This document shows positions 13,042 to 36,666 of a stretch of DNA of 64,000 nt, one piece after another. Origin of the DNA: an uncultured Pseudomonadota bacterium (GTDB lineage Bacteria; Myxococcota_A; Polyangia; Fen-1088); assembly GCA_963847705.1 (NCBI GenBank), contig CAWKBC010000027.1, positions 768,001 to 832,000 on the forward strand, in the 5' to 3' direction. The notes below the pieces were generated by a model that was not told where the DNA came from, made no database searches, and saw only the letters and a program-made list of their open reading frames with translations. The position numbers were made by a program, and so were the translations under genes. Position 1 is the first letter of the stretch; each line of letters opens with the position of its first letter.

Positions 13042-13060
13042 GCAGCTCCGGCACTCCGGC

Positions 13061-16000
13061 ATGCCACCAGGAACCGACGGCGACGACGAAGAGCTGGTCG
13101 AGATCGATGTCGAGATCGACGGGCCGCCACCGGTTCCCCAGGCCTCGGCGCCCGAGCTGATCGCGGACGGAGGGGACACCGAGCCGAACCGCGGCGGAAC
13201 GCCCACCGAGGGTCCACCGCCCGCGCCTCCGGACATCCTGGAAATCTCCGACGTGGTCGAGCTGCAGCCGCCGATCGTCGAAGCAGCTGCGGACGATCTG
13301 GCCAGCGCGCTGGCGCTCTATGAAGCCGAGGCGGCCGCCGCGGAGGGGGGGCGAAAGGGCGCGCTGCTGCTGGAGGTCGCTCGGCTCCGGGAGATGCGCG
13401 ACGGCGCCGGGGAAGGGGGTGCGCGCGCGGCCCTGGCGGCGGCGCGCGCAGCCTTCGCCAGCGATCCCGCCTCGGTGCCCGCCCTCTGGCTGCTGCGCCG
13501 CCTGCTCGCGCGCGCCGGCGGGTGGGAGGAGCTGGCGGCGATCTACGAGCAGGCGATCCAGGCCCCGTTGTCTGCCGCCGACCCGCGTCTGCGCGCCGAG
13601 CTGCTGATCGCCCGTGGGCGGTTGCTGGAAGATCGGCTCGACCGCGCCAACGACGCGATCGGCTGTTACCGGGAAGCGCTGGCAGCGGCGCCCGATCACC
13701 CGGGCGCGCTGCTGTCCCAGCTGCTGGCCGGCGCGCGGGGGCAGGATGCGGCGCTCCTCGCCGAGGCGCTGGGCGGGCTCGCACGCCGCGCGGAGAGCCC
13801 CCCCGTGCGGGCGGCGCTGGTCATCGAAGAGGCGCTCGCCTGGCGTCGCGCCGAGCCGCGCGACGGTGCGGAGCGCGCGCTCGCCGTGCTGGAGGAGGAG
13901 CTCGGCCGCAACGACCCCGGGTCGCCGGTCGGGGCGCTGCTGGCCGAGCTCGAGGCGCTGGCGCGCGCCGAGGTCCCTGCGGCGACGGCGGTGCAGGCGC
14001 TCGAGGATCTGGCCAGACGGCTGGAGAGCGTCGACGCAGGCCTGGCCGTCGCGCTCTTGCGCGAGCGGGCCCGTCTGTTGCGCCAGGAGTTGCTGGCGCC
14101 CGAGGCGGCGCTGGAGACGCTCGACGAGGCGGCGCGCCTCGACCCCGCGCATCCGGTGGTGGCTGCCGAGCGGTTCGAGCTGGCGTTGGCCCTCGATCGC
14201 CGCGACGCGGCCGGCGAGCTCGCGCGGGGATTCCTCCTGGCGGCCAGGCGCGACGACGAGGCGGTCGACTTCGCGCTCGCCTGCGCGGAGGCGATCTTCG
14301 ATCCCGCCCACCCCGACGCCGCCGTGGAGATTCTCCAGACGCCCCGGGTGCGGGCCCGCCGCGCGGCCCGGGCCGATCTGCGGGCGCTCGAGCTGGCGCT
14401 GGCCGTCGTCCGACGGGACCCGCGGGCGCTGGCCGATGCCTTCACGCTCGGAGCGGACGCCGAGACGCATGCCGACGCCGGGTCGAAGGTCGCCGCGCTC
14501 ATCGCCGCGGGAGCGGTTCGGGCGGGACCGCTCGGGCAGACCGACGTGGCCAGCGATCTCTACCAGCGGGCCATCGATTTTGCTGCCTCGCCCGAACAGG
14601 CGCGCCCGGCCTTGCAGGTGCTGGTCTCGCTGCGGGCCGCCGCCGGCCGCATCGAGGAGGCGACCGCGATTCTGGAGACGGCGCTGGCTGCCTCGGCGGC
14701 GTCGTCCGGAGGAGGTACCAGCGAAGCAGACGCCGCCTTCGAGATCTGGGCGCGCGAATCGCTGGTGGCCTTCTACGCCGACGAGCTCGGCGCGCCCGGC
14801 CGCGCGCTGCCGCACCAGCGCCGTCTGGTCGCTCTGCGGCCGCGAGAGGGCGCGGGTCGGGTGCGGCTCTGCGATCTCGATCTGGAGAGCGCCCCGGATG
14901 GCCTGCGGCCGAACGAGCGCGCCGACAACCTGCTCGCCCTGGCGGCCGAGGCGGGCGAGCCGGCGGTGGAGATCGCGCTCCGGGTCACCGCCGGGCGAGC
15001 GCTCGCCGATTCCCCGGAGCCGCAGCAGAGCGCCGAAGGGCTGGCGCTGCTCGGCCAGCTGGTGACGGTCGATCCGTCGGGGCTGGCTGCGGCGCCGGTG
15101 GAGCGGGCGGCGGCCTCGCCGGCGGCGCGCGCGGAGATCGTGGCGGCCGAGCTCGGCGCCGCGGTCGACAACGGCCCGGCGGAGCGGACGCGTGCGCTCC
15201 GTTTCCGACTGGCGCACCACCGCGCGGCGGCGGGCGCTTTCGCCGAGGCGATGGCCGCCTTGACGCCGCTTCGCTCCGAGGGAGATCCGCTGGCCCGCGC
15301 CTGGAGCTACGCGCTGGCGCGCCGCGCGGGCGACGCGTTCCTGGAGGTCGCCGTGCTCTCCGAGGAGACGCGGGTGCCCGACGGCACGCTCGGCGACGAG
15401 GCGGGCGTGCTGCTCGCGCACGGCGAGGCGCTGGCCGAAGCGGGTGACCCGCAAGGGGCCGCCGATTCGTTGCGCCGCGCGGTCGCTCGCGCCCCGGACG
15501 GGGAGACAGCAGCCGACGCCGCCCTCTTGCTCTATCGTCTGGCGACCGTCGCCGCCACCAGCCCGGGCGGAGCGGGCGCGGCGTTGCCCGAGGCGCTGGA
15601 GGCACTGGCGGGTGCGGTGGGAGACGATCCCGCGCTCGCCGCGGCGGCGGCGCGCGAGGCGGCGCTCAGCGCGGCGGCGAGCGGCTCGGCTGCTGTCGTC
15701 CAGGGAGCGGCAACGAAAACGAAGCTCGGCGATTCGCCCGCCGCTCACGCCGAGCTGACGCTCTTGCGATTCATGACCGGTGTGCGCGCCGGGGACCCGA
15801 AGACGGTGGCCGAATCACTGGCCGAGATCGCGCGGGGGCTGGCCGACGCCGACGGAACCGTGCCCGGCGAAGCCGTGCCGCTGCTGGCCCGCGCGGCGGC
15901 GCGCGCCCGGCTGGCCGGCGCCGAGACCGCGGAGGCGGTCGCCGTGGCCGTCTGGGAGACGGCGCATCCGCCCGCGCTGGCGCCGGCCCTCGCCGATCTG

Positions 16001-18097: not shown

Positions 18098-21000
18098 TGG
18101 CCGGCGAAAAGAAACCGCCCGCGTCGGGCCGTGAAGCTGCCGACGACGGTTCGGTCGAGGTCGAGGCGCTGTTCGACGATCTGTTCGACGAGGCGCCGCC
18201 CACCGATCCGACGGCGCCGACCGTGCCGGAGCGCGACGAGGAGGTCACGCTGGAGGTCCCTGCGGTGGCCGCCAGGGCCGGGATCAACCCCAGAGCTCCA
18301 GCCGAATGGGAGGTCGCGGCTGAATCCGAAGTCGAGCCCGAGGTCGAGCCAGAAGCGCCGGCCTTCTTCGCGCCGATCCTTCCCGAGATGGAGGCGGAGA
18401 TCTGGCAGGCGGGGATTCAAGCTCTGGTGACCGTGCCGGAGCGTTCCGCCCCGCCGACGACCTCCCACGATGACTGGATCGAGGAGGCGCGCCTGTTTCA
18501 AGCAGAGAGCAACTCCGCCGAGACACCGGTGCTGGCAGCGGGGCTCCTCACCGCGGCCGCGCGTGCGGCGGAGGTCGCCGGGGAGACGGCGGAGGCCGCC
18601 AGCGGCTACGACGAGGCGCTGGCCCGCGCGCCGACGGCGCCCGATGCGCTGCGGGCGCGCGCCCGTCTGGCAGAGAGCCTGGGCGACATCGACGAGGCCC
18701 ATGCGCTGTGGGCGCGGCTGGCCATCTCGGCGGGGACCGCCGAGGAGCGGGCGTTTTATGGGGCGCTGTCGGCGGAGTGGACGCTGGCACGCCGGGGTGC
18801 GCTGCCAGCGGTGGCCGGCGAGGCGATCCCCGCCGGAGCCGCGCGGGCGCTGGCGGTCGTCGAGGAGGCGTTGCGGGGCGGCACGTCGGTCGCTCCTGCG
18901 GCAGCGTTCGCGGCGGCCGGACGCGTTCTCGGCGGGAGATTCGGCGCGGCGTTTCTCGACCAGGCCGCGCGCTTCTCGCTGGCGGCGGGCGACGCCGCTT
19001 CGGCCGCGGCTCACCGAACGGCGGCGCGCAAGATCGATCCCCAGGGCGAGACCATCCTCGGCCGCCTGCGCGAGGCCGCCTGGACGGATCGCCGGCGCGG
19101 AGGAGGCGGCAAGACAGGCAAGACAGGCGAGACCGCCGACCTCGACCAGATCCTCGCGGCTTTGCCGGCGGGATCTGCGCTCGCGCAGGCGGTCGGCCGG
19201 TGGGCGGCCGCGGCGGCGCGGCGGCGCGGAGATCCGGAGCGGGCGCTGGCCCTGCTGACCGGCCTCGGTGCGACCACGGCGGCGGCCGCGCGCGATCGGC
19301 TCGATCTCGAGTTTCTCGTCGACGGCGCGCTCGACGAGCAGAGCCTGGCACGCCTGCGTGGGTCCGCCACGGCGCCCGCGGCCGCGGCCAACTTGATCTG
19401 GATCGAAGCCGCCGACCTCGTTCGTCGCGGGGAGCACGAGGCGGCGGCCCGGCTGCTCGGGCGGGGGATCGAGGAGCACGCCGATGCGGTCCCGCTCGCG
19501 CTCCTGGCCGAGGAGATCGCGGCGGCCACCGACGATCCGGCCCTGGAGGCCGCGACGCTGGACCTCTGGCTGCGCGGCGATCCAGCCCGCCGCGCCCAGG
19601 CCGCGCTGGCGCTGGCGGCCAACCTGGAGGCGGCTGGCAGCGGCCTCAACGCGCGCGCGGCGCTCCAGACCGCCGTCGAATCGGCGCCCGAATCGGCTTC
19701 GTTCTGGGTCGCGGCCGCCTCCGACGCGCGCGCCGGTCGGCGCAGTGATGCCGCGGCGGCGCTGGGATTCGGCGCCGAGGTCTGGGAGGCGAGCAGCCTC
19801 GTCCCCGGGCTGCGGGCGGCCGCGGCGGTGAAGCTCGCCCCCGGCGATCCGGACCGCGCGCTGGCCGCGCTGGGCGCCGCCGCCGAAGGGGCGCTCTCCG
19901 AGGCTGCGCGCGCGCTCGGCCCTTCGGCCGTCGCGCGGCTGGCCGAGCGGGCAGGGGATCGGGCGGCGTTCGAGACGGCGCTCGACGCCGCCGAGGCGGT
20001 GACCCGCGAGCCGGCGCAGGCGGCCTGGCTGGCGCTCCGGCGCGCCTGGTCGATTCCCTCGCCCGCGAGCGAGGCAGAGAACGAGGCAGCGGGGGCTGCG
20101 CGCCGGCGAGCGCTCGAGCGGGCCCTGGAGATCGTTCCCCGTCATCCGCTGGCGCTGGGGCTCTTCCTCGCCGAGCCGGGGGTCGACCTGGCGGCGGCGG
20201 CCGCCGCCCTGGCCCGGGTCGGCTCGGCCTCGTCCGAGATCTCCGCGTTCAGCCGGACGATGGCGCTGGCCGCGGCGAGCACGCTCGCGCTCGGCGGGGA
20301 TCGGGAGGGGGCGCTGCGGCGCGCGGCGGAGATCCTGGCGTCGGCGCCAGCAGATCCCGAGGCGCGGACGGCGGTGGCGCGGACGGCCGCGGCGCTCGGC
20401 GGCGAGAGCGGCCTGCGCGCGCTGGCCGGACTGACCGTCGCGGCGGCCGGGCGCGACGAGGCGCTCTCGCTGGCCGTCGCGGAGGCGCGCATCGCGATCG
20501 GCGCGCGGGAGGCGGCCGGCGAGGCGCTGCGAATCCTGGACGACGGCCGATTCGGGCCCGACGCGCGGCGCGCAGGAGCACGGCTCCGTGCCTCCGACGC
20601 GGTGCCGTTTCCGTCGGGGCTCTTCGCCGCGCCGCCCGAGCAGGCGGCCGCGGAGTCGCGAGCCGCGGTGGCCGCCGTGGTGGAGGCTGCGTCGGCCGGC
20701 CGTTGGGACGAGCTGGTCGCCGCGCTCGCGGGCGCCCCGCCGCACGAGGCGGTGGCCAGCGCCGGAACGTTGGCCCTCGCATCGCTGGTGGCGGAGGGAC
20801 ATGGCGACGAGGCCGCGGCTGACCGACTGGCCGAGGCGGCGGTGGGCGCGGACGACGCGCCGTCGCCGCTCTCCACGCTGACGCTGGCGCGTGTGGTCGA
20901 CTCGGCGGCCGACACGGCGGTCCGCGCGCGGGCGTTGACGGCGGCGACGGCCCGCCTGGGCGCCGCGGAGTCGGATCGTCGCTCCGCCGCGGCCGCGCTG

Positions 21001-23061
21001 GCGGCGCGGGCGCGCCTGGAAGAGGGCGCGGGCGAGCCCGCCGCCGCGGCGGAGAGCTGGCGCGCGTCGCTGGCCGCCGAGCCGACGTTTCTCCCCGCGG
21101 CCCGCGCGTTGCGGATCGTGGCGGCGCGGACGGGTGACAGCGCGGCGACCAGCGGCGCCTCCGAGACCGAAGCGGCCTGCCTGCTGGTTCCGGCGCATCG
21201 GGTGCGCGCCTTGCTGCTGTCGGCGGCGCTGGCCGTCGAGGCCCATCCGCCCGAGCGCGAGCGATCGCTCGGACTCCTGCGCGCCGCGCTCGCCGTCGAT
21301 CCGGCGCACGACGTGGCCTTCGAACGGTTGCGCGCGCTCCTCACAGAGCTGGACGATGCGCCGGCGCTGGCCGCGGCGTTCGCGGCCCGGATCGAGGTGG
21401 CGGTCAATCCGTTCGAGGTCACCTCGCTCCGGCTGACCCGCGCCGATGTCCTGTCGGCCACGCTCGGCGATTGGGGCGCCGCCCGGGAGGAGCTGGAGGC
21501 GGTCCTGCGCCGGCAACCGGAGCACGCCCGGGCGCTCGAGCGGCTGTCGGAGCTGCTCTGGAGCCGTGAGGCCTGGAGCGAGGCGGGTGAGATCTATCTG
21601 CGCCGCGCGGTGGTCGAGCGCGATCCGGCGACGCTGCGCGGGATCTTCCTGCGTCTCGGCGAGATCTATTCGAGCCGCGTCCCCGATCCCAAGCGCGCGG
21701 CGGCGGCCTACGAGCGGGTCCTCGGCGTCGACGCCGACAACCTGGAGGCGCTGCGGGCGCTGTCGGATCTGACGGTCGCCGAGGGGGACACCAAGCGCTC
21801 GCTCCCCGTCACCGAGCGGCTGGTGGCGCGTGAGCCGGACGTCGCCCGCCGTCACAAGACGCGCATTCGGCTGGGCGAGATCCTGATGCAGACGGGCGAT
21901 CTCCGGCGCTCCGGCGCCGAGCTGCGCCGGGTGGTCGACGAGTCGCCGCGCGATCTCGCGGCGGTCGGTGCGCTGGCGCAGCTTCTCGACCGGGCGCGCG
22001 ATCCGACGGGGCGCCGCACGGTGCTCGATCGCGCCGTTCGGTTGCACCGGCAGGATCTGGCCAGCGCCGGGGTGCGGGTGGAGACGCTGCGCGCGCTGGC
22101 GACGTTGCTGACCATGCGCGAGCGCCCCCAGGCCGCGCTGGCCGCGGCTCAGCTGGTCGCCGCCGTCGGGGGTGGGACAAGGGAGGGCGTTCGCCAGGCG
22201 TCGCGGCCCGGACGGAGCCTCTTGGGGCTGCGCCGACCCGAGGTCGATGATCGGGTCTTTTCGTCGGAGGCGCTTCCGCCGGGAATCCGACAGCTCTTGC
22301 GCCAGCTCGGGCCGCTGCTTCGACCAAGCGGTCAGGAGCTGGCGCAGCGCCTCGGCCGGGAGGGGGTGGGGAAGTCCGACCGCCGGACCCGCAACACGCC
22401 GCCCCGGCCGCTGTTCGACGCCGTCGCGGCAGAGCTGGGCGCCGGCGACTTCGACCTCTACGTGAAGACGCGCGGCGGGTCGTCCGAACCGATTCCGCTT
22501 CGTGCCGAGCCGGGGAGCCCGTCGGCGCTCATCATCGGCGAGGAGATCGAGGAGCTGGGCCCGGCCGCGCTGCGCTTCGCCGCGGCCCGCCTGCTGCGCC
22601 TGACCGCGACGAACCTGGACGCCATCCTGGCCGGCTCGCCCGTCGAGGCGGGTGCGCTGCTGGTCGGGATCATCCGACAGTTCGTTCCGGACTACGAGCA
22701 CACCGAGGTCCCGGAGAGCCTGATCGCCCCCGAGATGTCCCGCGCCGAGCGGGCGATCCCGCGCAAGCTCAAGCCGCAGGTCATGCCGTTCGCGGTCGAG
22801 AGCGCGGGCGCGTTCGACCTGGGCGCCCTCCACGCCGCCACGCGCGACGCGGCCAACGCGGTCGGCCTGCTGGCGGCGGGCGATTTGCCGGCCGCGCTGT
22901 CGGTGATCCTGGCGGTCTCCGGGACCGCCCCGGTGAAACTGGGCCTCGGTGGGGTCGGGCTCACGCTCGAGGCGATCGGGGCCCACGCCGAGGCGATGGC
23001 GTTGCTGCAGTTCGCCGTCTCGGATGAGTTCGATGACCTGGCGGGCGCGCTGGAGTCGTAG
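18097..23061 (+). CDS. Giant TPR-like helical repeat protein (1654 aa), probable paralog of the upstream gene
   Basis: TGATG stop/start overlap; acidic N-terminus; TPR-like units (AAAAYERVLGVDADNLEAL); C-terminal LRFAAARLL...ANAVGLLAAGD. Confidence 0.75.
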   Translation: MAGEKKPPASGREAADDGSVEVEALFDDLFDEAPPTDPTAPTVPERDEEVTLEVPAVAARAGINPRAPAEWEVAAESEVEPEVEPEAPAFFAPILPEMEAEIWQAGIQALVTVPERSAPPTTSHDDWIEEARLFQAESNSAETPVLAAGLLTAAARAAEVAGETAEAASGYDEALARAPTAPDALRARARLAESLGDIDEAHALWARLAISAGTAEERAFYGALSAEWTLARRGALPAVAGEAIPAGAARALAVVEEALRGGTSVAPAAAFAAAGRVLGGRFGAAFLDQAARFSLAAGDAASAAAHRTAARKIDPQGETILGRLREAAWTDRRRGGGGKTGKTGETADLDQILAALPAGSALAQAVGRWAAAAARRRGDPERALALLTGLGATTAAAARDRLDLEFLVDGALDEQSLARLRGSATAPAAAANLIWIEAADLVRRGEHEAAARLLGRGIEEHADAVPLALLAEEIAAATDDPALEAATLDLWLRGDPARRAQAALALAANLEAAGSGLNARAALQTAVESAPESASFWVAAASDARAGRRSDAAAALGFGAEVWEASSLVPGLRAAAAVKLAPGDPDRALAALGAAAEGALSEAARALGPSAVARLAERAGDRAAFETALDAAEAVTREPAQAAWLALRRAWSIPSPASEAENEAAGAARRRALERALEIVPRHPLALGLFLAEPGVDLAAAAAALARVGSASSEISAFSRTMALAAASTLALGGDREGALRRAAEILASAPADPEARTAVARTAAALGGESGLRALAGLTVAAAGRDEALSLAVAEARIAIGAREAAGEALRILDDGRFGPDARRAGARLRASDAVPFPSGLFAAPPEQAAAESRAAVAAVVEAASAGRWDELVAALAGAPPHEAVASAGTLALASLVAEGHGDEAAADRLAEAAVGADDAPSPLSTLTLARVVDSAADTAVRARALTAATARLGAAESDRRSAAAALAARARLEEGAGEPAAAAESWRASLAAEPTFLPAARALRIVAARTGDSAATSGASETEAACLLVPAHRVRALLLSAALAVEAHPPERERSLGLLRAALAVDPAHDVAFERLRALLTELDDAPALAAAFAARIEVAVNPFEVTSLRLTRADVLSATLGDWGAAREELEAVLRRQPEHARALERLSELLWSREAWSEAGEIYLRRAVVERDPATLRGIFLRLGEIYSSRVPDPKRAAAAYERVLGVDADNLEALRALSDLTVAEGDTKRSLPVTERLVAREPDVARRHKTRIRLGEILMQTGDLRRSGAELRRVVDESPRDLAAVGALAQLLDRARDPTGRRTVLDRAVRLHRQDLASAGVRVETLRALATLLTMRERPQAALAAAQLVAAVGGGTREGVRQASRPGRSLLGLRRPEVDDRVFSSEALPPGIRQLLRQLGPLLRPSGQELAQRLGREGVGKSDRRTRNTPPRPLFDAVAAELGAGDFDLYVKTRGGSSEPIPLRAEPGSPSALIIGEEIEELGPAALRFAAARLLRLTATNLDAILAGSPVEAGALLVGIIRQFVPDYEHTEVPESLIAPEMSRAERAIPRKLKPQVMPFAVESAGAFDLGALHAATRDAANAVGLLAAGDLPAALSVILAVSGTAPVKLGLGGVGLTLEAIGAHAEAMALLQFAVSDEFDDLAGALES

Positions 23062-23089
23062 CGCGCCCGCGTGATAAATTGGGCCCTCG

Positions 23090-24559
<1,470 letters not shown>

Positions 24560-24600
24560 CGCGTGGAAACAGTCCATCGGTGCGTGGCTATCCGGTCGAG

Positions 24601-25594
24601 GTGAGCAGCGAGGCTGCGGCTGCACACGCCGCGGCGCTGGTGCTCGATCTTCACAACGACGTCCTCACCAAGCTCACGCACTCGAAGTACGACTTCGCGC
24701 GCGAGCACGGTCCGGCGGCGTTCTACAACCCGCTGCGCCTGGATCTCGGATCTGCCGCGCATCAAGCGCGGAGGCCTCGACGCGCTCGGCTGCCTGATGT
24801 TCTCGGGCTTCCGGATCGATCCAGGACGGCGGCGGTTCTGGCGCCAGCTCGAGCGGGCCCGCGCGCTGGCGGCCGAGAACGCCGACACGCTGACGCTGGC
24901 GCGCAACGCGGGGGAGATTCGCGCCGCGCGCGCGGCAGGCCGGGTGGCGCTGTTCCTGGGCGTCGAGGGGAGCTACGCGATCGACGACGACGTCGAGGCG
25001 GGGGTGGCCCGCCTGGCAGAAGCGGGCGTGATGTTCCTGGGGCCGCTGTGGGAGCGTGACAGCGGCGCCGGGAGCTCCTGCCGCACGGCCCCCGCGCGCG
25101 ATCGGGGCCTCACCGACCAGGGGCGCGTCCTCTGCCGCGCCTGCGACGCCGCCGGGATCCGCCTCGACGTCGCGCACGCCAGCCGCAAGACCTTCTGGGA
25201 AATCGTCGAACGGGCGGAGCGGCCGCCGTTCTCGTCGCATTCGGGCGCGGCCGGCGTCTATCCGCATCCGCGCAACCTGGACGACGATCAGATCCGCGCG
25301 CTGGCGGCGCGCGGCGGGGTGGTGGGCGTCATCTTCGTCGCGCCGTATCTCGGCGGGACGTTCTGTACGCTGGAGAGCGTGGCCGACCACATCGAACATG
25401 TGGCGCGCATCGGCGGCGACGACTGCGTCGCGCTCGGCTCGGACTTCGACGGCTTCCTGCCCCTGCCGCGCGGCCTGCGCGACGCCGGGGATCTCCCGCG
25501 GCTGACCGAGATCCTGTGGCGCCGGGGCTGGCGAGGCGCGCGCCTCGGCAAGCTGTTGGGCGAAAACGCGCTGCGGTTTTTCGCCGCCTCCTGA
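24601..25594 (+). CDS. Membrane dipeptidase (peptidase M19); +1 frameshift near 24748
   Basis: DLHND in the first frame; after removing one G the sequence reads DLPRIKRGG, LGVEG, DVAH, SSHS, RNLDD and LGSDFDG. Confidence 0.85.
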
Positions 25595-25770
25595 CGCGCC
25601 GCGGGGCGATTTGCGCAGCGTTCGCCTTGTCCGCTGACGGGACGCGACCTACCTGCTCACATACTCCGCACGTGCAGGGCGTCGGCGGGGAACCAGTTGC
25701 ATTGATTGGTTAATTTCCGGAATCCGGGCTGTTGTTTGCCGGCCGGCCCGGCAGTGGTTGCGCGCCCGGC

Positions 25771-25806: not shown

Positions 25807-25924
25807 GATAGATAGGTAGTCAGAGGTGAGAGCATTCTCAACAACAAGGTGCATCAAGCGAACGGTTGAGTCCGGTCCGGTTCAATCCGTCCGCGGTCGT
25901 GGCTTCGAATTCCGCTTCGAAGCG

Positions 25925-26518
25925 ATGGCTGCGCGCCCGCTTTGTGTCCTCGTCGTGCTCGCAGCGCTGCTCGGGGGAGGTGGATGCAACCAGCTCCTGC
26001 TCGCATCGTCGGCCGCGCCCCAGCCCTTCGATGGCGGCGAGGCCGGGATCACCACCGCGCTCACCCGTGATTCGCACGCGGTCTACTTCCCGATCGGCGA
26101 CGGCACCAACCACGCGGCGCAGGTCTGCACCGACTGCCACCAGAGCGCCAACACCTTCGCCGACTTCACCTGCATCTCCTGCCACGATCATTCCGAGGAA
26201 CTCGCCGACACCCGACACGTTTACATCACCGGGTTCGTCTACCAATCCTCGGCCTGCTTCTCTTGCCACCCGACGGGCAACGAGGCAGCCATCACCCCCG
26301 ACGAGCACAGCCTCAAGTACTTCCCGATCACCGATGCCGCACACGGTTCACTGGCCTGCACCGACTGCCACCAGGACCCCACCACCTCGAAGCCCTTCAG
26401 CTGCGTCACCTGCCATGACCACAGCTCCGGCGTGGAGGCGACGAACCACGCGAGCGTCGCTGGCTACAGCTACGATTCGACCTCCTGCTACAACTGCCAT
26501 GGGGCGCCGAGCGACTAG
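25925..26518 (+). CDS. Hexaheme c-type cytochrome, probable lipoprotein
   Basis: Six CxxCH motifs (CTDCH, CISCH, CFSCH, CTDCH, CVTCH, CYNCH) in two tandem triheme units; hydrophobic leader ending GGGGC. Confidence 0.85.
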   Translation: MAARPLCVLVVLAALLGGGGCNQLLLASSAAPQPFDGGEAGITTALTRDSHAVYFPIGDGTNHAAQVCTDCHQSANTFADFTCISCHDHSEELADTRHVYITGFVYQSSACFSCHPTGNEAAITPDEHSLKYFPITDAAHGSLACTDCHQDPTTSKPFSCVTCHDHSSGVEATNHASVAGYSYDSTSCYNCHGAPSD

Positions 26519-26527
26519 GGCCGTTCC

Positions 26528-28800
26528 TTGACACCGCAGTCTGCCGTCGAGGCCCTCACGACGCGCCTTTTAGCCCTGGGACCCGGGGCGTGGTCCCTTC
26601 TGTTCGTCGGCGTGGCGGCGCTCGTGGCGCTCGTCTTCCTCGTCGTGCGGAGCCGCGAGCACCGGCGGGCGCGCGCGACGCTGGACGAGGCCCTGCGGAT
26701 GGAGCTGCACCTCCCCCAGTCATTGCACCCGGTCATCGATCCCGACGTCTGCATCGGCAGCGGCTCCTGCATCCAGGCCTGCCCCGAGGGGAGATCCTGG
26801 GGCTCATCAACGGCGTGGCCACGCTGGTCAACCCCTCGAGCTGCATCGGCCACGGCCGTTGCGCGGCCGAGTGCCCGGTCAGCGCCATCAAGCTGGTGTT
26901 CGGTTCGGCCGAGCGCGGCGTCGACCTCCCGGAGATCGACGGCTCGTTCGAGAGCAGCCGCCGCGGGATCTACATCGTGGGCGAGCTGGGAGGGATGGGC
27001 CTCATCAAGAACGCCCTCACGCAGGGGCTGCAGGTCGCGGCGCGGGTGCGGGCCGCGCTTGGACCGGCGGCGCGCCGTGGCGACGGCGAGCTCGTCGACC
27101 TCGCCATCGTCGGCGCCGGCCCGGCCGGAATCGCGGCGGCCGTCGGCGCGCGGGCCGCCGGTCTCTCCTACGCGCTGCTCGAGCAGGACACGGTCGGGGG
27201 GGCGATCGCGCACTACCCCCGGCAGAAGCTGGTCATGACCGAGCCGGTCACCCTGCCATTTCACGGCAAGTTCGGACGTCCGTTCATGGCCAAGGAGGAC
27301 CTGCTCGCCGCGCTGGAGCGGGTCATCGCCGACGCCGGGCTGGAGGTCCACGAACGGGCGAGGGTCGTGTCGGTCGACGGGCAGGCGGGCGACTTCCTGG
27401 TCACCTCGTCGCGCGGCGTCCTGCGGGCGCGGCGGGTCGTCCTGGCGATCGGCCGGCGCGGTACGCCCCGCACGCTGGGGGTGCCGGGGGACGACCTGGC
27501 GAAGGTGACCTACCGACTGATCGATCCGACCCAGTATCAAGGCAAACGGGTGCTGCTGGTGGGCGGCGGCGATTCGGCGCTGGAGGCGGCGGCGATGCTG
27601 GCCGACCAGACTTCGGCGGAGATCACCATCGTCCATCGTGCGCCCCAGTTCGCCCGTGGGCGCGCGCTCAACCGACAGAAGATGGAGGCGCTGCGGGCCT
27701 CGGGCCGGGTGCGCGCGTTCATGTCGTCCGAGGTCGCGGCGGTGGAGCCGGCCGCGGTTCGCCTGACGAAGGGCGGCGCGACGACGACCGTACCCAACGA
27801 CTTCGTGATCGCCTGTCTGGGCGGGGAACCTCCCGGGCAGTTCCTGAAGACCGTCGGCGTCGACATCCGGCGCCACCGGGGCGACCGGGCGATGGCCAAT
27901 CCCACCTTCGCCGCCCAGGTGGGCTCTGCGGGCGACGAGCGGCTCGCCGCGACGACGCTCGCGTTCGTGGGAATCGCGATCTTGGTCTTTCTCGGCGTGG
28001 CGGGCGGCCGCTACTACCTGCTGCCGGACGCCCTGCGCTACCGGGCACCCCAGCACGAGCTCATGAAGCCGTCAGGATCCTGGGGCCACGGGATCGGAAT
28101 TCTCGCCACCGGCGTGATGCTGCTGAACTTCGTCTATCCGATTCGCAAGCGGGCGCGCTGGTTGAAGCGAAGAGGCTCGATCGCCCCCTGGCTGCGCTTT
28201 CACGTGTTCGTGGGGATCCTGACGCCGCCGGTGATCCTGTTTCACTCGGCGTTTCGCTGGGGCAACCCGCTGGCGACCGCCACCTACGTCTCGCTGGTGG
28301 TGGTGGTCGTGACCGGCCTTTGCGGGCGGTTCATCTACGGCCTCTTCCGCGTCGACGCCGAGGACGGCAAGCGGGTGGCGGCGCTGCGGGGACGACTGCA
28401 ACCCGTGCTGGCGGCGCTCGGCTCCCTCCAGGGGGCGCAGATGGACCTCCCGCGCTCCGCCGCGCTGGCCCGGCTGACCGCGCTGGTGGAGGCGCCGGGG
28501 GCCCTGCCTGCGTCGGTGGGCGAGCTGCTCTGGCGGATGCCCGCCGAGGCCTGGGCGTTGCGGCGCACGATCCGTCAGCTCGAACCCCTGTTCGTCGACC
28601 GCCGGGCCTTCCCGGCGTTTCGGGCGCAGCTGCTCGATCTGCGGCGCCGCGACGTGAAGCTGCACTTCCACCGCGGGTTCAAGCGGCTCATGCACGGCTG
28701 GCGAATCTTCCATGTCGCGCTGTCGGTGGTCCTGGTCGGCCTCATCGGCGCGCACATCTGGATCAGCCTGCGCATCGGCTTCAAGTGGCTCTGGTCGTGA
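26528..28800 (+). CDS. Membrane-anchored ferredoxin + FAD/NAD(P)H oxidoreductase + cytochrome-b-like domain; -1 frameshift near 26790
   Basis: N-terminal TM; CIGSGSCIQACP and CIGHGRCAAECP; GIYIVGE; IVGAGPAG; VGGGDSALE; C-terminal TM helices with two H-x13-H pairs. Confidence 0.8.
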
Positions 28801-28819
28801 GCGGGCCTGTGGCAAAGGC

Positions 28820-30712
28820 GTGAGGAGACCGGCGCTGGTCGGCGGACGCGCGCTCGGGGTGGCTCTCCTGCTGTTGTTGCTGGGCGGCGGACGCGACGCT
28901 GCGGCCCAATTTTTTTCCCCGGGTCCCCTGGCCAAGGCGCATGCCGCGCTCGACACCAAGGGTCTCAGTCAGTGTGGCGCCTGCCACGACAAGGGGGAGC
29001 CCCGCTTCGCCAACCGCTGCCTCGCCTGCCACAGCGAGCTCGGGCCGGAGCTCAAACAGCGCGACGGCCTGCACGGGCGCATGGTCCCGGCGGTCTTGAA
29101 CCAGTGCCAGACCTGCCATCCCGATCATCGCGGCCTCGACTTCTCGCTGATCAGCTTCGGCGGGAGCGTCAAAGGATTCGATCACAAGCGGACGGGCTGG
29201 CCCTTGCGCGGGCATCACGCCCAGACCTCCTGCGAGAGCTGCCACGCCAGTCACCAGCTGGTCGACCAGACGGTGGTCCGGATGCTGGCGGCGCAGCAGG
29301 GGCGCACCACCTTCCTCGGCCTCGCCAAGCGTTGCGACAGCTGCCACTTCGACGAGCACCGGGGGCAGCTCGGCAAGGACTGTCAAAAGTGCCACGGCGA
29401 CACGGCGCTGTTCTGGAGGACCACGCTCGGCGCGTTCGATCACCAGGAGACCGCCTTCCCCCTGCGGGGGAAGCACAGGGCGGTGCCCTGCGCCGGGTGC
29501 CACGCCACCGTCGAGGATCGGGCTTCGTTCAAGCAGTTCTTCCCGCCGCCGCGCAGCCCGACCTTCATGCAGATGAAGCCGGTCGCTCACGGCACCTGCG
29601 AAAGCTGCCACAAGGATCCCCACCAGGGGTCCTTCGGCTCGAGCTGCGCCGGCTGCCACACGGAGGAGGGTTGGAACGTGATCCTCCCGGGGCGCGAGCT
29701 GTCGGCGAGCTTCCACGACCGCACGCGCTTCCCGCTCCGGGGCGCGCACGCCAGCGTGGCCTGCAAGAGCTGCCACGGGCCGTTCGGTCACCAGGCGGCC
29801 GTCTTTCGCGGGCTGCCGTTCGCCCGGTGCAGCGACTGCCATCAGGACGCCCACCTCGGCCAGCTCGCGGCGCTGCCGGGGCGGCCGGCGGCGGACTGCG
29901 CCGCCTGCCACGACGAGAGCGCGTTCAAGCCGCCGCGCTACGAGCTCGAGGCCCACGCCAGGACGCGCTTTCCGCTCGAAGGGGGGCACGCGGTCGTCGC
30001 CTGCCGCGACTGCCACCCCGTCGACAAGAGCCTGGCGGCGCGGGTGCCGCAGGAGGTGACCGTCAAGCTGGCCAGGCAGCGCCGCCCGCTGGTGGTCAGC
30101 CTGGCGGTGCTGCGCCCCAAGATTGGCCCGCAGACTTGCTCTCGCTGCCACAAGGATCCGCACGGAGGGCAGTTCGACGCCGAGATCAAGGCGGAGGACT
30201 GCGGCGGGTGCCACACCGTCAAGTCGTTCGCCGACTTGACCTCGTTCCACCACGACACCGACAGCCGATTTCCGCTGACCGGAACGCACCAGCGCACCCC
30301 ATGTGCGGGCTGCCATCGGGCCGAACAGATCCGGGCGGGCGAGGCGCCGGTGGTCCGCTGGAAGCCGCTGCCGGTGACCTGCGGCGGCTGCCACCGCGAC
30401 GAGCACCAGGGGCAGTTTTTGGCCAGCACGCTCCCCTCCGACGGCGTCGCGCGCGGCGCCGAGGGGTGCGACTTCTGCCACCAGACCACGAGCTTCAAGA
30501 CGACCGGGTTCAGGCACGACGACGCGCGCTTCACGACCTACCCTCTGCAGGGGAAGCACGCCTCCTTGCCCTGCGGGGATTGCCACCGCGCCGTCACGCT
30601 GACCGCCGAGGGGCAGGCGCTCGAGGCCGTTCGTTACCGCCCGCTGCCGCGCGATTGCCAGGGGTGTCACGTCGACTTTCACCACGGCGACTTCAGGGGG
30701 TTCGAGCCGTGA
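28820..30712 (+). CDS. Secreted multiheme c-type cytochrome (20 CxxCH)
   Basis: Signal peptide ending DAAA-Q, then SPGPL..AH; 20 CxxCH motifs counted; repeated FDH..T.FPL.G.H linkers. Confidence 0.9.
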   Translation: MRRPALVGGRALGVALLLLLLGGGRDAAAQFFSPGPLAKAHAALDTKGLSQCGACHDKGEPRFANRCLACHSELGPELKQRDGLHGRMVPAVLNQCQTCHPDHRGLDFSLISFGGSVKGFDHKRTGWPLRGHHAQTSCESCHASHQLVDQTVVRMLAAQQGRTTFLGLAKRCDSCHFDEHRGQLGKDCQKCHGDTALFWRTTLGAFDHQETAFPLRGKHRAVPCAGCHATVEDRASFKQFFPPPRSPTFMQMKPVAHGTCESCHKDPHQGSFGSSCAGCHTEEGWNVILPGRELSASFHDRTRFPLRGAHASVACKSCHGPFGHQAAVFRGLPFARCSDCHQDAHLGQLAALPGRPAADCAACHDESAFKPPRYELEAHARTRFPLEGGHAVVACRDCHPVDKSLAARVPQEVTVKLARQRRPLVVSLAVLRPKIGPQTCSRCHKDPHGGQFDAEIKAEDCGGCHTVKSFADLTSFHHDTDSRFPLTGTHQRTPCAGCHRAEQIRAGEAPVVRWKPLPVTCGGCHRDEHQGQFLASTLPSDGVARGAEGCDFCHQTTSFKTTGFRHDDARFTTYPLQGKHASLPCGDCHRAVTLTAEGQALEAVRYRPLPRDCQGCHVDFHHGDFRGFEP

Positions 30713-31590
30713 GGGGCACGCGCTGCTTGGTGCTCGCCGCGCTCTTGGTCCTGCCCGGCGCCATGACGCTGGCCGAGACGTCGGGGCCGGTCGGTGGGCC
30801 GCCGGCGCCTCCGGCGCCGCCCCGCGCGGCGCCGACCGCGGCGTTCGGTCGGGGCGGGGCGGCCACCAACTGCGCGGCGTGCCACGTCGAATCCAGCTGG
30901 TCCGAGGTGCGGTTCAACCACGATCGCACCGGCTACCCCCTGGTCGGCGCCCACGCCAAGGTGACCTGCCAGGCCTGCCACCCGACGGGATTTCGGGCGC
31001 GGGTCCCGGAGCTCTGCAGCGGCTGCCACCGCGATCGCCACGCGGGAGAGTTCGGGCTTCACTGCGAGGGCTGTCATGAGGCGACGCGCTGGGCTGAAGC
31101 GCTGTTCGGTCCCGACGCGCATCGCAGCACCGCGTTTCCGCTGACCGGCAGGCACGCGCTGATTCCTTGCCGCGAGTGTCACGGCGACATGCGCGATCGG
31201 ACCTTCTCCCAGGCGCCGCTGGCCTGCGTCGCTTGCCACCAGAAGGACTACGACAACGCGGCGCTCACCTCGCTCGACCACGTCGCCTCGCACTTCGACA
31301 CCAACTGCCAGGCCTGTCACAACACCTGGTCCTACTTTCCGGCGCGGTTCGACGCCCACGATCGCTGCTTCGTGCTGTCGTCGGGACCGCACGCCCCAAT
31401 TCGCTGCGCGCAGTGCCACACCCGCGCGGCCGGCCTGGTCGTCACCGGCGCCTGCAGCACGCAGAATTCGACCTGCACCAGCTGCCACGCGCACAGCTGC
31501 GCGCGGAGCGATCAAGAACATCAATCGGTCATGGGTTACAGCTGCAGCGACTCCAAGTGCTACCAATGCCACCTGCGCTCAGTCCCCTAG
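30709..31590 (+). CDS. Secreted decaheme c-type cytochrome (10 CxxCH)
   Basis: GTGA overlap start at 30709; signal peptide; 10 CxxCH motifs from CAACH to CYQCH. Confidence 0.88.
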   Translation: MRGTRCLVLAALLVLPGAMTLAETSGPVGGPPAPPAPPRAAPTAAFGRGGAATNCAACHVESSWSEVRFNHDRTGYPLVGAHAKVTCQACHPTGFRARVPELCSGCHRDRHAGEFGLHCEGCHEATRWAEALFGPDAHRSTAFPLTGRHALIPCRECHGDMRDRTFSQAPLACVACHQKDYDNAALTSLDHVASHFDTNCQACHNTWSYFPARFDAHDRCFVLSSGPHAPIRCAQCHTRAAGLVVTGACSTQNSTCTSCHAHSCARSDQEHQSVMGYSCSDSKCYQCHLRSVP

Positions 31591-33212
31591 CGTCGCTGCT
31601 GCTGGCGGCGGTCTCGATGTCGGCGCCGGTGCGGTCGTCGGCGGCGGCGACCGGCCAGGTCCGGTTCGTGACGGCCAGGCGCCTCTACCTCGACAAGGGA
31701 GCGGCGGATGGCTTGCGGGCGGGGGACAAGGTGACGTTCTCGCGCGAGGGGCGCGGGGCGGGCGGCTGCACGATCGATCTCGTCGGGACGCACGACGCCG
31801 TCTGCCGTGGGCGAGGGGCCTCGGCCGGCGACGTCTTCGCGCTGCCGCGCCGCCCGGCGCCTGCGTCGCCGCCGGTCCCAGCGCCGCTGCCCGCGCCCGA
31901 GTCGGACGAAACGGTGGAGAGGCGCGCCGCCGAGCTGGCCGCGTCGCCGCACGACAAGGTCGACTTCGTGCCCCAGGTCCGCACCGCCCGAGTCGCCACG
32001 GGAAACGCCGCGCTCGGCGTGGCCGTGTACGCCACCCGGCCGGGCGCGCCCCAGTATGTCGACGAGACCCTCGATGTCGCGCTCCAGCACGTTCCTCTCG
32101 GCAGCTCCAGCTTCCGGTTCGACACGGCGTTCTCGGTGGTGCGCATGCAGACCACCTCGCCGCCGCGCTTTCGCCCCGGGAGCGTGACCGAATTCTATCT
32201 GTGGGACGCCGAGATCTCGCGCCGGGAGATCGACTCGCAGACGGTGGTGGCGCTGGGGCGTATCTGGCCCTGGCACACGCCCGGTCTTCCCATCCTCGAC
32301 GGCGCGCAGCTCGGACGGCGAAACGAGCTGGGGACGGTCGAAGGGGGCGTCTACGCGGGGCTCATCCCAGACACGCTGACCCTCGCGCCGACCTTCGATG
32401 CCTGGACGACCGGCGTCTACGGCGCGCTCTCGCAACCGGGCGCGCGCGACGACACGATCCGGATGGCCGCCGAGGAGGCAAGGATCGGGGTGCGGCACTC
32501 GCCGACGGCGGGATGGGTCCGCGAGGCGCAGGGGCAGGCGACCATCGAGCTCGCGGGGGGCGGCGTCGCCGCCAGCGGCTGCCTGCGGGACGCGCCGGAG
32601 GTCGACCGCCAGCCGGTGCTGGAGCTGGCCAATGGGGAAGCCTGGGTGCGGTCCGCGTCGGTGGGGGCGCGCATCCAGGTGCGCTACCTCGGGGTGGGGC
32701 CGGAGCAGGAGCCTCTCTTGCGCGACGAGCTCCCCCGCGTGCTCGGTGGGTTCCACGGCAGCGCGGGCCTCTCCTGGGATCCGGCGCGCACCGTCGGCCT
32801 TGCCCTGAACGGCGACGCGCACCACGAACAAGAGGGGAACCTGAATGAGGTCAACGCGGGCCTCGACCTCCATTTTCCTCGCCTGTTTGGGCAGAGCGGC
32901 GGCCTCTGGCTGGGCGCCGCGGCGGGGCAGGGGTGGATGGAGAGCCGCAGCGCCTACGCGCAGATCATCCTGACCGCCCCCCGGGTCCGGCTGCTCGGAC
33001 GGGTCGGCGGCGACGTCAGCCGCTTCGCCGATCCCAGCGGCGAGGTCGCGGTCTCGGAGCTGGGCGGCTCGCTCCAGCTCGAAGGGAGGCTCACGCCGCG
33101 CCTGCGCCTGGTGGCCCGCTCGCTGGTGCGCGTTCCCCTGGCCATCGCGGGCGTCCTGCCCGACGCGACGTCGGGTCTCGTCTCCAGCCTTGATCTCGTG
33201 GCCGCGTACTAG
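31566..33212 (+). CDS. Probable outer-membrane beta-barrel protein with N-terminal soluble domain
   Basis: Signal peptide; small domain YLDKG..DGL..GD; Pro-rich linker; many amphipathic beta-strands; C-terminal aromatic residue (DLVAAY). Confidence 0.6.
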   Translation: MPPALSPLASLLLAAVSMSAPVRSSAAATGQVRFVTARRLYLDKGAADGLRAGDKVTFSREGRGAGGCTIDLVGTHDAVCRGRGASAGDVFALPRRPAPASPPVPAPLPAPESDETVERRAAELAASPHDKVDFVPQVRTARVATGNAALGVAVYATRPGAPQYVDETLDVALQHVPLGSSSFRFDTAFSVVRMQTTSPPRFRPGSVTEFYLWDAEISRREIDSQTVVALGRIWPWHTPGLPILDGAQLGRRNELGTVEGGVYAGLIPDTLTLAPTFDAWTTGVYGALSQPGARDDTIRMAAEEARIGVRHSPTAGWVREAQGQATIELAGGGVAASGCLRDAPEVDRQPVLELANGEAWVRSASVGARIQVRYLGVGPEQEPLLRDELPRVLGGFHGSAGLSWDPARTVGLALNGDAHHEQEGNLNEVNAGLDLHFPRLFGQSGGLWLGAAAGQGWMESRSAYAQIILTAPRVRLLGRVGGDVSRFADPSGEVAVSELGGSLQLEGRLTPRLRLVARSLVRVPLAIAGVLPDATSGLVSSLDLVAAY

Positions 33213-33410: not shown

Positions 33411-34556
33411 GTGCTGAATCTCCGCAACCTCGACCGCGGTGAGATGGGCGAGGCGCTCGCGTCCTGCGGCGTGAGCAGCCAGGTCGCCCAGCGGGTGTTC
33501 GCCCGGGTGCATGGCCTGGGCGCCACCGGGTTTCCACCGGGCTCGGTGCGGGGGCTCGCGCACGCCACGACCGCGGCCCTGGAGCGCGGCTGCGAATGGC
33601 CGGACCTGGAGGTCATCGAGCGGCGGCGGGCCGCCGACGGGTTCGTGAAGTACCTGTTTCGGACCGCCGACGGTCACGCCATCGAGGCGGTGCGGATTCC
33701 CTTGCCGGACCCGGCCGACGCGCGTGCGCTCAAGGAGCGGCGCCGGGCCGGTGAGGCGGCCGGGCTCCAGACGTTGCCGACGGCGAAGTACACCGTCTGT
33801 CTCAGCTCGCAGGTCGGGTGCGCGCTCGCCTGCGATTTCTGCGCGACCGGGCGCCTGGGGGGGATTCGCAGCCTGAAGACCTGGGAGATCCTGGCGCAGC
33901 ACCGGCTGATCGCCGCCGAGGCCGATCATCCGGTGAGGGGCGCGGTCTTCATGGGGATGGGCGAGCCGTTCCTGAACTACGAGAACGTGATCCGGGCGGC
34001 CCGCATCCTCTGCGATCCGGCGGGGCCGGCCATCTCCGCCAAGGCCATCTCGATCTCGACCGCCGGCGTGCTCCCCGCGATTCGCCGCTTCACCGCCGAG
34101 GGGCATCACTTTCGCCTCATCCTGTCGCTGGGTGCGCCGCTGGGCGCGCAGCGGCGGGTGCTGATGCCGATCGAGGACCGCTGGCCGGTGGTCGACGTGC
34201 TGGCCGCGCTCCGCGAGCATGCCGAGGCGCGGGGCGTGCGCGCCATGCTGGCCTACGTGGTCATCGGGGGCGTCAACACCTCGCCCGCGCACGCGCGTGC
34301 GCTGGGCGAGTTGCTGGCCGGAATGCGCGCCAAGCTGAGCCTGATCGACGTCACCGACGAGACCGGCCGCTACCAGCGTGCCGGCGACCAGGAGCTGGCC
34401 ACGTTCCGCGACGCCCTGGCCGCGCTCGGTATCCCCGTTGCCCGGCGGTACTCGGGCGGCGCCGAGATCGGCGCCGCCTGCGGAACCCTGGCCGCCACCC
34501 GACAGGGCGGCCAGGATGCCTTGGTTCAGGTTCGGCTCGAGAGCGAGCGGCTCTAG
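33411..34556 (+). CDS. RlmN/Cfr-family radical SAM RNA methyltransferase (divergent)
   Basis: KYLF, CLSSQVGCALACDFCATG, FMGMGEP, ISTAG and C-terminal GAEIGAACG. Confidence 0.85.
   Translation: MLNLRNLDRGEMGEALASCGVSSQVAQRVFARVHGLGATGFPPGSVRGLAHATTAALERGCEWPDLEVIERRRAADGFVKYLFRTADGHAIEAVRIPLPDPADARALKERRRAGEAAGLQTLPTAKYTVCLSSQVGCALACDFCATGRLGGIRSLKTWEILAQHRLIAAEADHPVRGAVFMGMGEPFLNYENVIRAARILCDPAGPAISAKAISISTAGVLPAIRRFTAEGHHFRLILSLGAPLGAQRRVLMPIEDRWPVVDVLAALREHAEARGVRAMLAYVVIGGVNTSPAHARALGELLAGMRAKLSLIDVTDETGRYQRAGDQELATFRDALAALGIPVARRYSGGAEIGAACGTLAATRQGGQDALVQVRLESERL

Positions 34557-34569: not shown

Positions 34570-36662
<2,093 letters not shown>

Positions 36663-36666
<4 letters not shown>

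Follow-up and report, generated by a model that had tools for sequence, protein, structure and literature searches.

How might a bacterium carry electrons from cytoplasmic NADPH to its surface without passing through the quinone pool? To our knowledge, the characterised porin-cytochrome conduits of Gram-negative bacteria draw on that pool. The question is raised by a cluster of five genes, here called A to E, in a 64,000-nucleotide stretch of DNA (the window; positions 768,001 to 832,000 of contig CAWKBC010000027.1, assembly GCA_963847705.1) from an uncultured bacterium of the GTDB lineage Myxococcota_A; Polyangia; Fen-1088. Genes A, C and D encode predicted multiheme cytochromes c, gene B a predicted membrane protein with flavin, iron-sulfur (Fe-S) and cytochrome b parts, and gene E a predicted outer-membrane barrel. 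The cluster is real and conserved in its five parts, and it is a variant of a named but uncharacterised kind of porin-cytochrome cluster, PCC3. Building on the observed motifs, predicted folds, synteny, co-occurrence and gene fusions, we propose that it may serve as an electron-export conduit, in which electrons would pass from NADPH through FAD, Fe-S centres, two b hemes, a cytochrome wire and the barrel to the outside; we hold this proposal to be evenly balanced between right and wrong. Statements on published systems refer to the accessible portions of the cited sources, and the loci and genomes compared are labelled L and G.

The five-gene cluster and PCC3

All five genes lie on the + strand, at distances of 9, 19, -4 and -25 bp in the order A-B-C-D-E, in agreement with an earlier note on this DNA that had described five co-oriented genes with short gaps or overlaps. 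The 6-, 20- and 10-heme cytochromes listed there were likewise recovered in the CxxCH counts of A (6), C (20) and D (10). The 36 CxxCH motifs all fall in the two frames used for coding, and the region's other four frames contain none, indicating that they are not due to chance. The genes are also kept together in other genomes, a condition that the earlier note had set for its proposal: a synteny survey found the same order in relatives, with B-C-D-E recurring in G030, G032, G011, G021, G002 and many loci with Myxococcota titles, and the metagenome loci L163-L165 (75-91% identity) carry the complete set of five in this order, B being intact in them and E cut by the contig end in L164. A scan of the genome collection with a single protein gave no relatives, its patterns being too specific. 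An alignment-based scan of genome contigs gave at least 597, of which the best 80 were kept as loci seeded on the flavoprotein part of B. The titles of these best 80 name Myxococcota, KSB1, Zixiibacteriota, Calditrichaceae, Planctomycetota, Ignavibacteriales, Bacteroidota, Acidobacteria, Nitrospiria and many Proteobacteria.

PCC3 was first named in 2017, as a predicted cluster of a porin, an extracellular cytochrome, a periplasmic cytochrome of ~21 hemes and a membrane protein of ~300 amino acids (aa) (He et al., PMC5566968). The membrane protein was described as carrying SGXXG and two WX3HX13H motifs, and the extracellular cytochrome as having 10-85 hemes and Thr/Ser/Gly-rich repeats (PMC5566968). 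PCC3 is frequent in iron oxidisers, and the cytochrome pairs of Gallionellaceae-family loci with PCC3 layout (L120-L129) fall within the published ranges (PMC10734462). The present cluster shares with PCC3 a five-helix membrane protein whose helices 3 and 5 bear two WX3HX13H motifs, a periplasmic cytochrome of ~21 hemes beside it (20 in gene C), a variable, probably outer cytochrome, a barrel linked by remote homology and a spacing of ~30 residues per heme. Unlike PCC3, its membrane protein is not a stand-alone protein of ~300 aa, but is joined by fusion to a flavo-Fe-S domain of NADPH type that the published model does not include, and TGxxG replaces SGXXG. Furthermore, where the proteobacterial porins have a long N-terminal region, E has a small beta domain, and it is smaller than they are by ~200 aa; the outer part consists of two proteins, the 10-heme D and the predicted 6-heme lipoprotein A, and the host is a myxobacterium. 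Since counterparts of the membrane protein, the periplasmic cytochrome and the barrel are present but TGxxG, the fusion and the outer cytochromes differ, we regard the cluster as a PCC3-like variant and not as canonical PCC3; judged from its sequences, it is related to PCC3 but divergent. Neither 'ferredoxin' nor 'thioredoxin' is used in the main text of PMC5566968, whose Tables S3 and S4 could bear on the gene lists, and no literature linking PCC3 to this flavoprotein was found in a search that left most subscription journals outside its scope.

The earlier note knew of no characterised system with this layout, though it left room for one. We also found no characterised match, but the cluster proved to be a homologue of the named, predicted PCC3, and an operon of similar gene content, ptdABCDEFG, is in print. 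In this PCC4-like operon, a porin and cytochromes are accompanied by an FAD/NAD(P) oxidoreductase, an Fe-S protein and a membrane protein resembling ferric reductases, and the function of the operon is reported as unknown (10.1101/2023.11.21.568154). It differs from the present cluster in its penta-, tetra- and deca-heme set (6, 20 and 10 hemes here), and in that PtdC is flavohemoprotein-like and PtdE carries cNMP plus 2x4Fe-4S, whereas no cNMP domain was found in B; the accessible portion of the preprint proposes no NAD(P)H-fed mechanism for it. The membrane proteins of PCC3 and PCC4 are described as having no significant overall homology (PMC5566968; 10.1101/2023.11.21.568154). A peat preprint presents four other-looking architectures with 8-13 hemes, and its supplements could overlap with this cluster (10.64898/2026.05.27.727921); further sources add distribution data only (PMC13386937, PMC7399161, PMC11475568, 10.1101/2022.03.26.485925). 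The cluster resembles MtrCAB, MtoAB, PioAB and Geobacter Pcc in having a barrel plus periplasmic and outer multiheme cytochromes. However, no CymA-type gene is present in it, and scores against the DmsE/MtrA family TIGR03508 (46.1 bits for C and 15 bits for D) are far under the cut-off of 192.2, which bears out the earlier impression that the heme linkers are not MtrA-like; the linkers do, however, match periplasmic cytochromes of PCC3.

The signal peptide of gene A ends in a Cys, which is also found in 19 A-type N-termini of relatives, and A is probably a lipoprotein and a variable, surface-side member; A-type cytochromes vary in size and place, with 6-42 hemes in relatives. The cytochromes contain 29.3-32.8 residues per heme, with repeated heme units. 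Gene C matched the PCC3 periplasmic 21-, 24- and 27-heme cytochromes at 27-28% over ~630 aa (E 1e-49 to 1e-58). In gene D, the N-terminal half is made of C-type repeats and the C-terminal half of A-type repeats; the ten CxxCH sites are invariant or nearly so, and additional His that would serve bis-His ligation are conserved. D matched the PCC3 extracellular cytochromes weakly (E 1e-7 to 1e-11), and A gave no match to them. D is fused to C in L025, L139-L141 and L149, and to A-type repeats in L049 and L052, suggesting that the cytochromes act in series in the order C-D-A. Very large cytochromes also occur in these clusters, at L041 16296-20210 (29 CxxCH, with MtrC/MtrF-like domain matches), L042 16567-20322 (29) and L101 14219-18616 (58).

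Gene E matched no Pfam or NCBIfam family at E 0.1, and the MtrB/PioB match for which the earlier note had proposed a search was thus not obtained. Its reading as a barrel held: the AlphaFold2 model (predicted local distance difference test score, pLDDT, 76.8; predicted template modelling score, pTM, 0.57) consists of a small beta domain with a conserved Cys pair, a helix and 22 strands at residues 145-547, and the fold matches listed are all beta-barrels, led by outer-membrane barrels at 5-13% identity (best match: Z up to 16.9, root-mean-square deviation (rmsd) 5.4 over 374 residues, 8% identity). MtrB (6r2q_B) ranks 29 among generic barrels in this search, with Z 13.7. The E family contains 865 representatives at E<=0.001, and its ESM Atlas matches are unnamed clusters only. 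When a narrower alignment was used, E showed no relation to PCC3 porins by profile comparison (0.3%), and the E profile matched no proteobacterial porin. With diverse alignments, hhalign gave 96.8-98.6% (E 2e-10 to 7e-16, 309-333 columns). E and the PCC3 porins share a GR..G..DG motif, and these porins outranked 84 barrel-like controls, barrels inside these clusters excepted, with scores of <=32 bits vs 9 for the best unrelated control. By these profile comparisons, the E family is remotely related to the PCC3 porins.

Table 1. Features of the five-gene cluster, in window coordinates
Feature	Position	Strand	Description
Gene A	25925-26518	+	197-aa predicted lipoprotein cytochrome c, 6 CxxCH, two 3-heme repeats
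Gene B, whole	26528-28800	+	predicted membrane flavo-Fe-S-cytochrome b, frameshifted in this assembly
Gene B, 5' piece	26528-26791	+	N-terminal membrane anchor, first ferredoxin motif C-x2-S-x2-C-x3-CP at 26750-26785
Gene B, one-base frameshift	26786-26792	+	probable assembly error
Gene B, cytoplasmic part	26791-27890	+	second Fe-S motif, Bdr/YpdA-TrxR fold without CxxC
Gene B, membrane part	27928-28800	+	five predicted helices, two WX3HX13H motifs, TGxxG; predicted di-heme cytochrome b
Gene C	28820-30712	+	630-aa exported cytochrome, 20 hemes, F.H..T.FPL.G.H repeats
Gene D	30709-31590	+	293-aa exported cytochrome, 10 hemes
Gene E	31566-33212	+	548-aa predicted outer-membrane protein, 22-strand beta-barrel ending in Tyr

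The flavoprotein and membrane domains of gene B

Gene B was analysed through an intact homologue, P0001 (structure model, pLDDT 81.1), in which an anchor helix is followed by a ferredoxin-type domain, a flavoprotein domain and another five helices. B carries C-x2-H-x2-C-x3-C at 26842, GELGG (a permuted FAD segment) at 26980, GxGxxG at 27112 and GGGDSA at 27562, and matched Pyr_redox_3 at E 2e-39. The NADPH-dependent bacillithiol disulfide reductase Bdr is both the nearest solved fold to the flavoprotein (Z 24.3, rmsd 3.0 over 267 residues) and the closest solved sequence (E 1.7e-46); the fold is thus of the TrxR/Bdr type and not that of the FNR-fold FAD/NADPH dehydrogenases. The Bdr (YpdA) and TrxR-type ferredoxin-NADP reductases, the closest in sequence and fold, share with B the NADPH fingerprint and the absence of CxxC. 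B differs from them in being membrane-anchored, joined to a ferredoxin domain and circularly permuted, and in scoring below the cut-offs of the YpdA family TIGR04018 (154.5 bits, cut-off 339.9) and the thioredoxin reductase family TIGR01292 (63 bits, cut-off 343). The permutation is seen in profile positions 163-424, which match Bdr 3-267, and in positions 115-154, which match the C-terminal FAD segment of TrxR/Bdr, weakly on their own; this usually C-terminal segment sits before the Rossmann motif in B.

Across 123 distinct domains, the second Cys of the second Fe-S motif is replaced by His in 122, the variable position of the first motif is Ser in 72, Cys in 40 and another residue in 11, and GGG(D/N)(S/A)A is present in 117. 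An xYR/xHR follows the GGG motif in 106 of 112 domains, and CxxC precedes it in none of the 112, which therefore have no redox-active thioredoxin-reductase Cys pair. GGG(D/N)(S/A)A together with xYR/xHR is read as an NADP(H) fingerprint, and these motifs suggest that the flavoprotein of B uses NADPH. A more distant flavoprotein-ferredoxin paralogue occurs in Myxococcota (L034 8696-11047, L036 7821-10709 and L030 8542-10899), in some cases with four CxxCH in frame and no nearby membrane partner.

In the membrane domain, the two W-x3-H-x13-H motifs lie at 28189-28245 and 28699-28755, and their four His are invariant in all 41 aligned membrane domains. The motifs are on helices 3 and 5 of the five, and by positive-inside counts each has one His near the cytoplasm and the other near the periplasm, consistent with two b hemes stacked across the membrane. 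The domain, ~290 aa of a fusion protein of ~757 aa, matched the family profile at E 3e-63, the window row being included in that alignment. Its helix-4 motif is TGLCG and not SGXXG; TGxxG is found in all 16 fused forms, and SGxxG in 48 of 49 stand-alone forms, the remaining one being truncated. Weak matches to Ferric_reduct (PF01794; best E 3.6e-5) and to Ni_hydr_CYTB were each obtained for 5 of the 41 domains, and ESM Atlas gave a 'ferric reductase like' lead (0.90) for one stand-alone membrane protein. No solved structure matched the domain profile by sequence (best E 0.14, coiled coils), and the domain was absent from the fold-search results of the full model, within which alone it was searched and whose lists were filled by the flavoprotein. 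The domain is predicted to be a di-heme cytochrome b homologous to the PCC3 inner-membrane protein.

Is this protein regularly joined to such a flavoprotein? Among the best 80 of the at least 597 loci, a membrane domain is present in 65 (16 fused) and a cytochrome of >=10 hemes in 61; these counts, like those that follow, are descriptive only, kin not being independent, a limit that weighs against the conduit proposal. The 42 of these loci that extend over >=15 kb contain a membrane protein in 40 cases, a cytochrome of >=10 hemes in 41 and a barrel in 37 (18 of E type and 19 of proteobacterial type). In the Gallionellaceae, to which G061 (locus L086) belongs, 45 of 91 genomes gave a membrane-protein match at E<1e-70 (4 with weak matches only were dropped) and 46 of 91 contained the flavoprotein; all 45 genomes with the membrane protein have the flavoprotein, 44 of them within 6 kb on one contig. 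In the phylum of the window, 37 of 151 genomes contain the flavoprotein (>=451 bits; 5 genomes with only a distant paralogue of 306-352 bits were dropped), and all 37 contain the membrane domain. The two domains are fused in the order flavoprotein-membrane in 32 and membrane-flavoprotein in 7 of the 123 distinct domains, and the two orders fall in separate parts of the midpoint-rooted FastTree tree. Hydropathy and positive-inside counts point to a cytoplasmic flavoprotein in both orders. The suggestion that the inner-membrane partner has its own pyridine-nucleotide and flavin site is supported, in that the membrane heme domain travels with, or fused to, a predicted flavoprotein of this kind.

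A second kind of fusion joins the membrane heme domain to a cNMP-type/4Fe-4S module (L147 6516-8678, L148 9390-11477 and L033 7591-9861; cNMP_binding match in L147 and L033) and echoes PtdE plus PtdF; that of L148 heads a 31-heme cytochrome and an E-type barrel. Two recurrent neighbour families considered as possible barrels turned out to be Ank/Sel1 and CcmF. A Sel1+ankyrin protein of ~670-700 aa occurs near the flavoprotein in 28 of the best 80 loci (for example, L063, L076, L080, L096 and L097), usually directly downstream. In L072, L073, L077, L085, L088, L091, L092, L094 and L109, mostly from Alphaproteobacteria, the membrane gene is separated from the flavoprotein by ccmF-G-H-I, which run in the direction of the flavoprotein.

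The earlier note had treated gene B as a single membrane FAD/NAD(P)H/ferredoxin protein. Its Fe-S motifs, Pyr_redox_3 domain and two His pairs were confirmed, but in this assembly B does not form a single open frame. The frame changes near 26790, where one base is missing at a short G run (26788-26791) and the frame indicated by the GC content of third codon positions switches, and the N-terminal helix and first Fe-S motif (26528-26791) lie in another frame than the rest (26791-28800). Homologues at 85-91% identity are single proteins of 746-767 aa (nearest named homologue, Polyangia bacterium), on which ground programmed frameshifting was rejected, and P0001 begins with the same sequence as the 5' piece. 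One extra base was present at this site in 7 contigs of relatives (other strains), across all 4 runs examined. In a codon-bias scan over 2.80 Mb of this assembly (5 of 48 contigs), the frame switched 98 times (3.5 per 100 kb), including 4 times in the window, vs 4 times in 430 kb of control loci (23 loci). The intact relatives, the extra base in their contigs and the many frame switches make an assembly error the likelier cause, and the frameshift is probably an artefact. We consider it quite unlikely that B is a true pseudogene in this strain, with the conduit disabled or decaying, an explanation independent of the function of the family. Besides the frameshift itself, it draws on the sequencing runs searched, in which no reads of this strain were found, and on the match to B in only 3 of 25 same-genus genomes (completeness 68-95%), suggesting that loss or patchy gain of B is common. 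It is opposed, in addition to the frequency of frame switches compared with controls, by the other four genes of the cluster, which are intact, by the 84-91% identity of the pieces of B to intact homologues, and by the Peptidase_M19 membrane dipeptidase gene just upstream (24580-25594), which is equally broken here (split near 24745) and intact in the same place in L163-L165. The codon-bias scan indicated further apparent frameshifts at ~42250 and ~44830 on the minus strand; the former joins the start of a secreted helical-repeat protein to the wrong frame, ahead of an ATPase gene that we take, from motifs, to be of the sigma-54 type with FHA/GAF domains.

The proposed electron route and its alternatives

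In NOX and ferric reductases, electrons pass from NAD(P)H through a flavin and two b hemes on helices 3 and 5 to the outside. Gene B may work in a similar way to these NOX/FRE/MsrQ-type proteins, along the same electron path. However, its dehydrogenase has the TrxR/Bdr fold plus two Fe-S centres instead of the FNR fold, its predicted acceptor is a cytochrome wire, and Ferric_reduct matches are few and weak, as given above. A likeness in His spacing to ferric-reductase-type proteins has been noted for PCC3 (PMC5566968).

In the proposed conduit, B would oxidise cytoplasmic NADPH and the FAD of its Bdr/TrxR-fold domain would be reduced, after which the two Fe-S centres, one His-ligated and one often short of a Cys, would split the electron pair into single electrons. 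As in NOX and ferric reductases, the two b hemes on the His pairs of helices 3 and 5 would then move the electrons over the inner membrane. The 20-heme C would span the periplasm, the 10-heme D would form the next stretch of wire, at barrel E or through it, and an outside acceptor, which may be Fe(III), humic quinones or another cell, would be reduced by lipoprotein A or by D itself. Electrons would leave without use of the quinone pool. We infer the direction of transfer, the preference for NADPH, the quinone bypass, the cofactors, the acceptor, the threading of the barrel and which cytochrome enters it. Starting at about -320 mV, outward transfer runs downhill with the aid of the membrane potential, as in NOX, and it spends that potential; a redox valve or reductive metal handling would therefore be likelier than an energy-conserving respiratory or Fe(II)-oxidising chain. 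The host genome contains three heme-copper oxidases and, for the oxidation of quinol, two ACIII-like clusters. In S. lithotrophicus ES-1, both PCC3 clusters are down-regulated on Fe(II) vs thiosulfate (PMC8788666), and in ES-1 proteomes one of them was largely undetected and the other flat (PMC12016527).

Several observations weigh against this proposal. In 11 of the 48 phylum genomes with a membrane-domain match, the strict flavoprotein is lacking, and in two examined genomes without it, the membrane domain is fused to a cNMP-type/Fe-S module instead; L173 has C-D-E without B directly upstream. Gene B is broken in this assembly and also, at a different site, in the same-genus assembly G021 (L024 7847-10166). 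The 22-strand barrel modelled for E is narrower than MtrB, which has 26 strands. The flavoprotein has ccmF/G/H genes beside it in 15 of the best 80 loci. For iron oxidisers, in which PCC3 is common (PMC10734462), giving away NADPH electrons would seem a waste. The published expression data are mixed, and in Sideroxydans CL21 the membrane gene of one PCC3 copy is up-regulated in iron-oxidising cells (10.1101/2025.02.27.639646), and the membrane domain of PCC3 was proposed to have a quinone site, as a quinone-active cytochrome b (PMC5566968).

The last two points also favour a quinone-linked conduit as in the published PCC3 model, in which the di-heme domain would pass electrons to and from the quinone pool, the wire could run in either direction, and the flavoprotein and Fe-S part would be a side branch, acting as an NADPH:quinone oxidoreductase or in reverse transfer to NADP+. 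The two-heme cytochrome b subunits of hydrogenases and formate dehydrogenases work with quinones, and the weak Ni_hydr_CYTB matches point the same way. On the other hand, a near-obligate pairing and two independent fusions with an NADPH-type flavoprotein would be unneeded for quinone-only entry, the host has other quinol-oxidising complexes, and no quinone-site motif was identified in the membrane domain, although no search aimed at one was made. We regard the quinone-linked conduit as unlikely, if a serious contender.

The ccm genes raise a different explanation, namely that B is a periplasmic reductant for the maturation of giant cytochromes (heme or apocytochrome thiols), with the cytochromes and barrel as its clients. 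In several of the loci with ccm genes beside the flavoprotein, the two are co-directional, with the flavoprotein after ccm, and the TrxR-like fold is consistent with such a role. However, 65 of the best 80 loci have no such ccm genes, 28 neighbours from four Gallionellaceae loci matched no ccm family at E 1e-8, the CcmF/NrfE heme lyase gene of this host is on another contig, and the flavoprotein has no CxxC, so that we judge this role very unlikely.

Conversely, the wire might run inwards, with electrons from an Fe(II) mineral, Fe(0), an electrode or a partner cell reducing NADP+ via the cytochromes and b hemes. For donors near Fe(II), this would be uphill chemically and against the membrane potential, and the cluster is found in records titled Novosphingobium, Hyphomonas and Archangium, which are aerobic heterotrophs. 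Autotrophs need NADPH, TrxR-type ferredoxin-NADP reductases are close in fold, and PCC3 is frequent in iron oxidisers (PMC10734462), all of which would suit an inward conduit; the down-regulation of PCC3 in ES-1 on Fe(II) (PMC8788666) would not, and we consider this direction most improbable.

Surroundings of the cluster and meaning for PCC3

Upstream, the region 13034-24559 encodes a pair of Ala-rich repeat proteins of great length (1687 and 1654 aa) as well as a Ser/Thr kinase, the latter conserved beside the cluster in L163-L165. An AT-richer non-coding stretch upstream of gene A (25810-25890), conserved in L163-L165, is a possible promoter or regulator site. The locus scan gave no sigma-70 promoter or terminator above chance, and a sigma-54-like element near 25685-25702 was rejected, not being conserved in L163-L165. 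Downstream lies a Radical_SAM gene (Pfam; 33444-34556), presumably RlmN-like, which is kept in synteny in L162, L163 and L165 and seems to have no link with the cluster, followed by a DEAD-box-type helicase gene on the minus strand (34570-36666). Other multiheme proteins of the host are encoded at L152 7242-8860 (13 CxxCH), L153 5425-8396 (8) and L154 6218-8128 (8), and none of the three received an NCBIfam cytochrome name at E 1e-15.

PCC3 clusters span many phyla and are usually discussed as candidate iron oxidases. We tentatively suggest, at somewhat less than an even chance, that PCC3-type clusters are a bacterial NOX-like machine, in which a circularly permuted NADPH flavoprotein whose Fe-S centres are His-ligated would feed a di-heme cytochrome b and a wire of 30-80 hemes that runs through a barrel family of its own, the first quinone-bypassing conduit from cytoplasm to surface in Gram-negative bacteria; the myxobacterial fusion would be the Rosetta stone of this NOX-like interpretation. 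PCC3 is widespread and expressed and has been without an assigned function since 2017, and expression data fit iron oxidation poorly. The new, testable element is the cytoplasmic NADPH-type input: the near-obligate NADPH-type flavo-Fe-S partner, fused in two orders, makes the PCC3 question testable with one purifiable protein. If the suggestion is true, about a quarter of the sampled genomes of the phylum (37/151) and half of the sampled Gallionellaceae (45/91) would vent cytoplasmic reducing power, and aerobic Alpha- and Gammaproteobacteria would likewise vent reducing power outward. It would then bear on iron and humic cycling in soil, on the reading of PCC3 in metagenomes and on the wiring of NADPH to electrodes.

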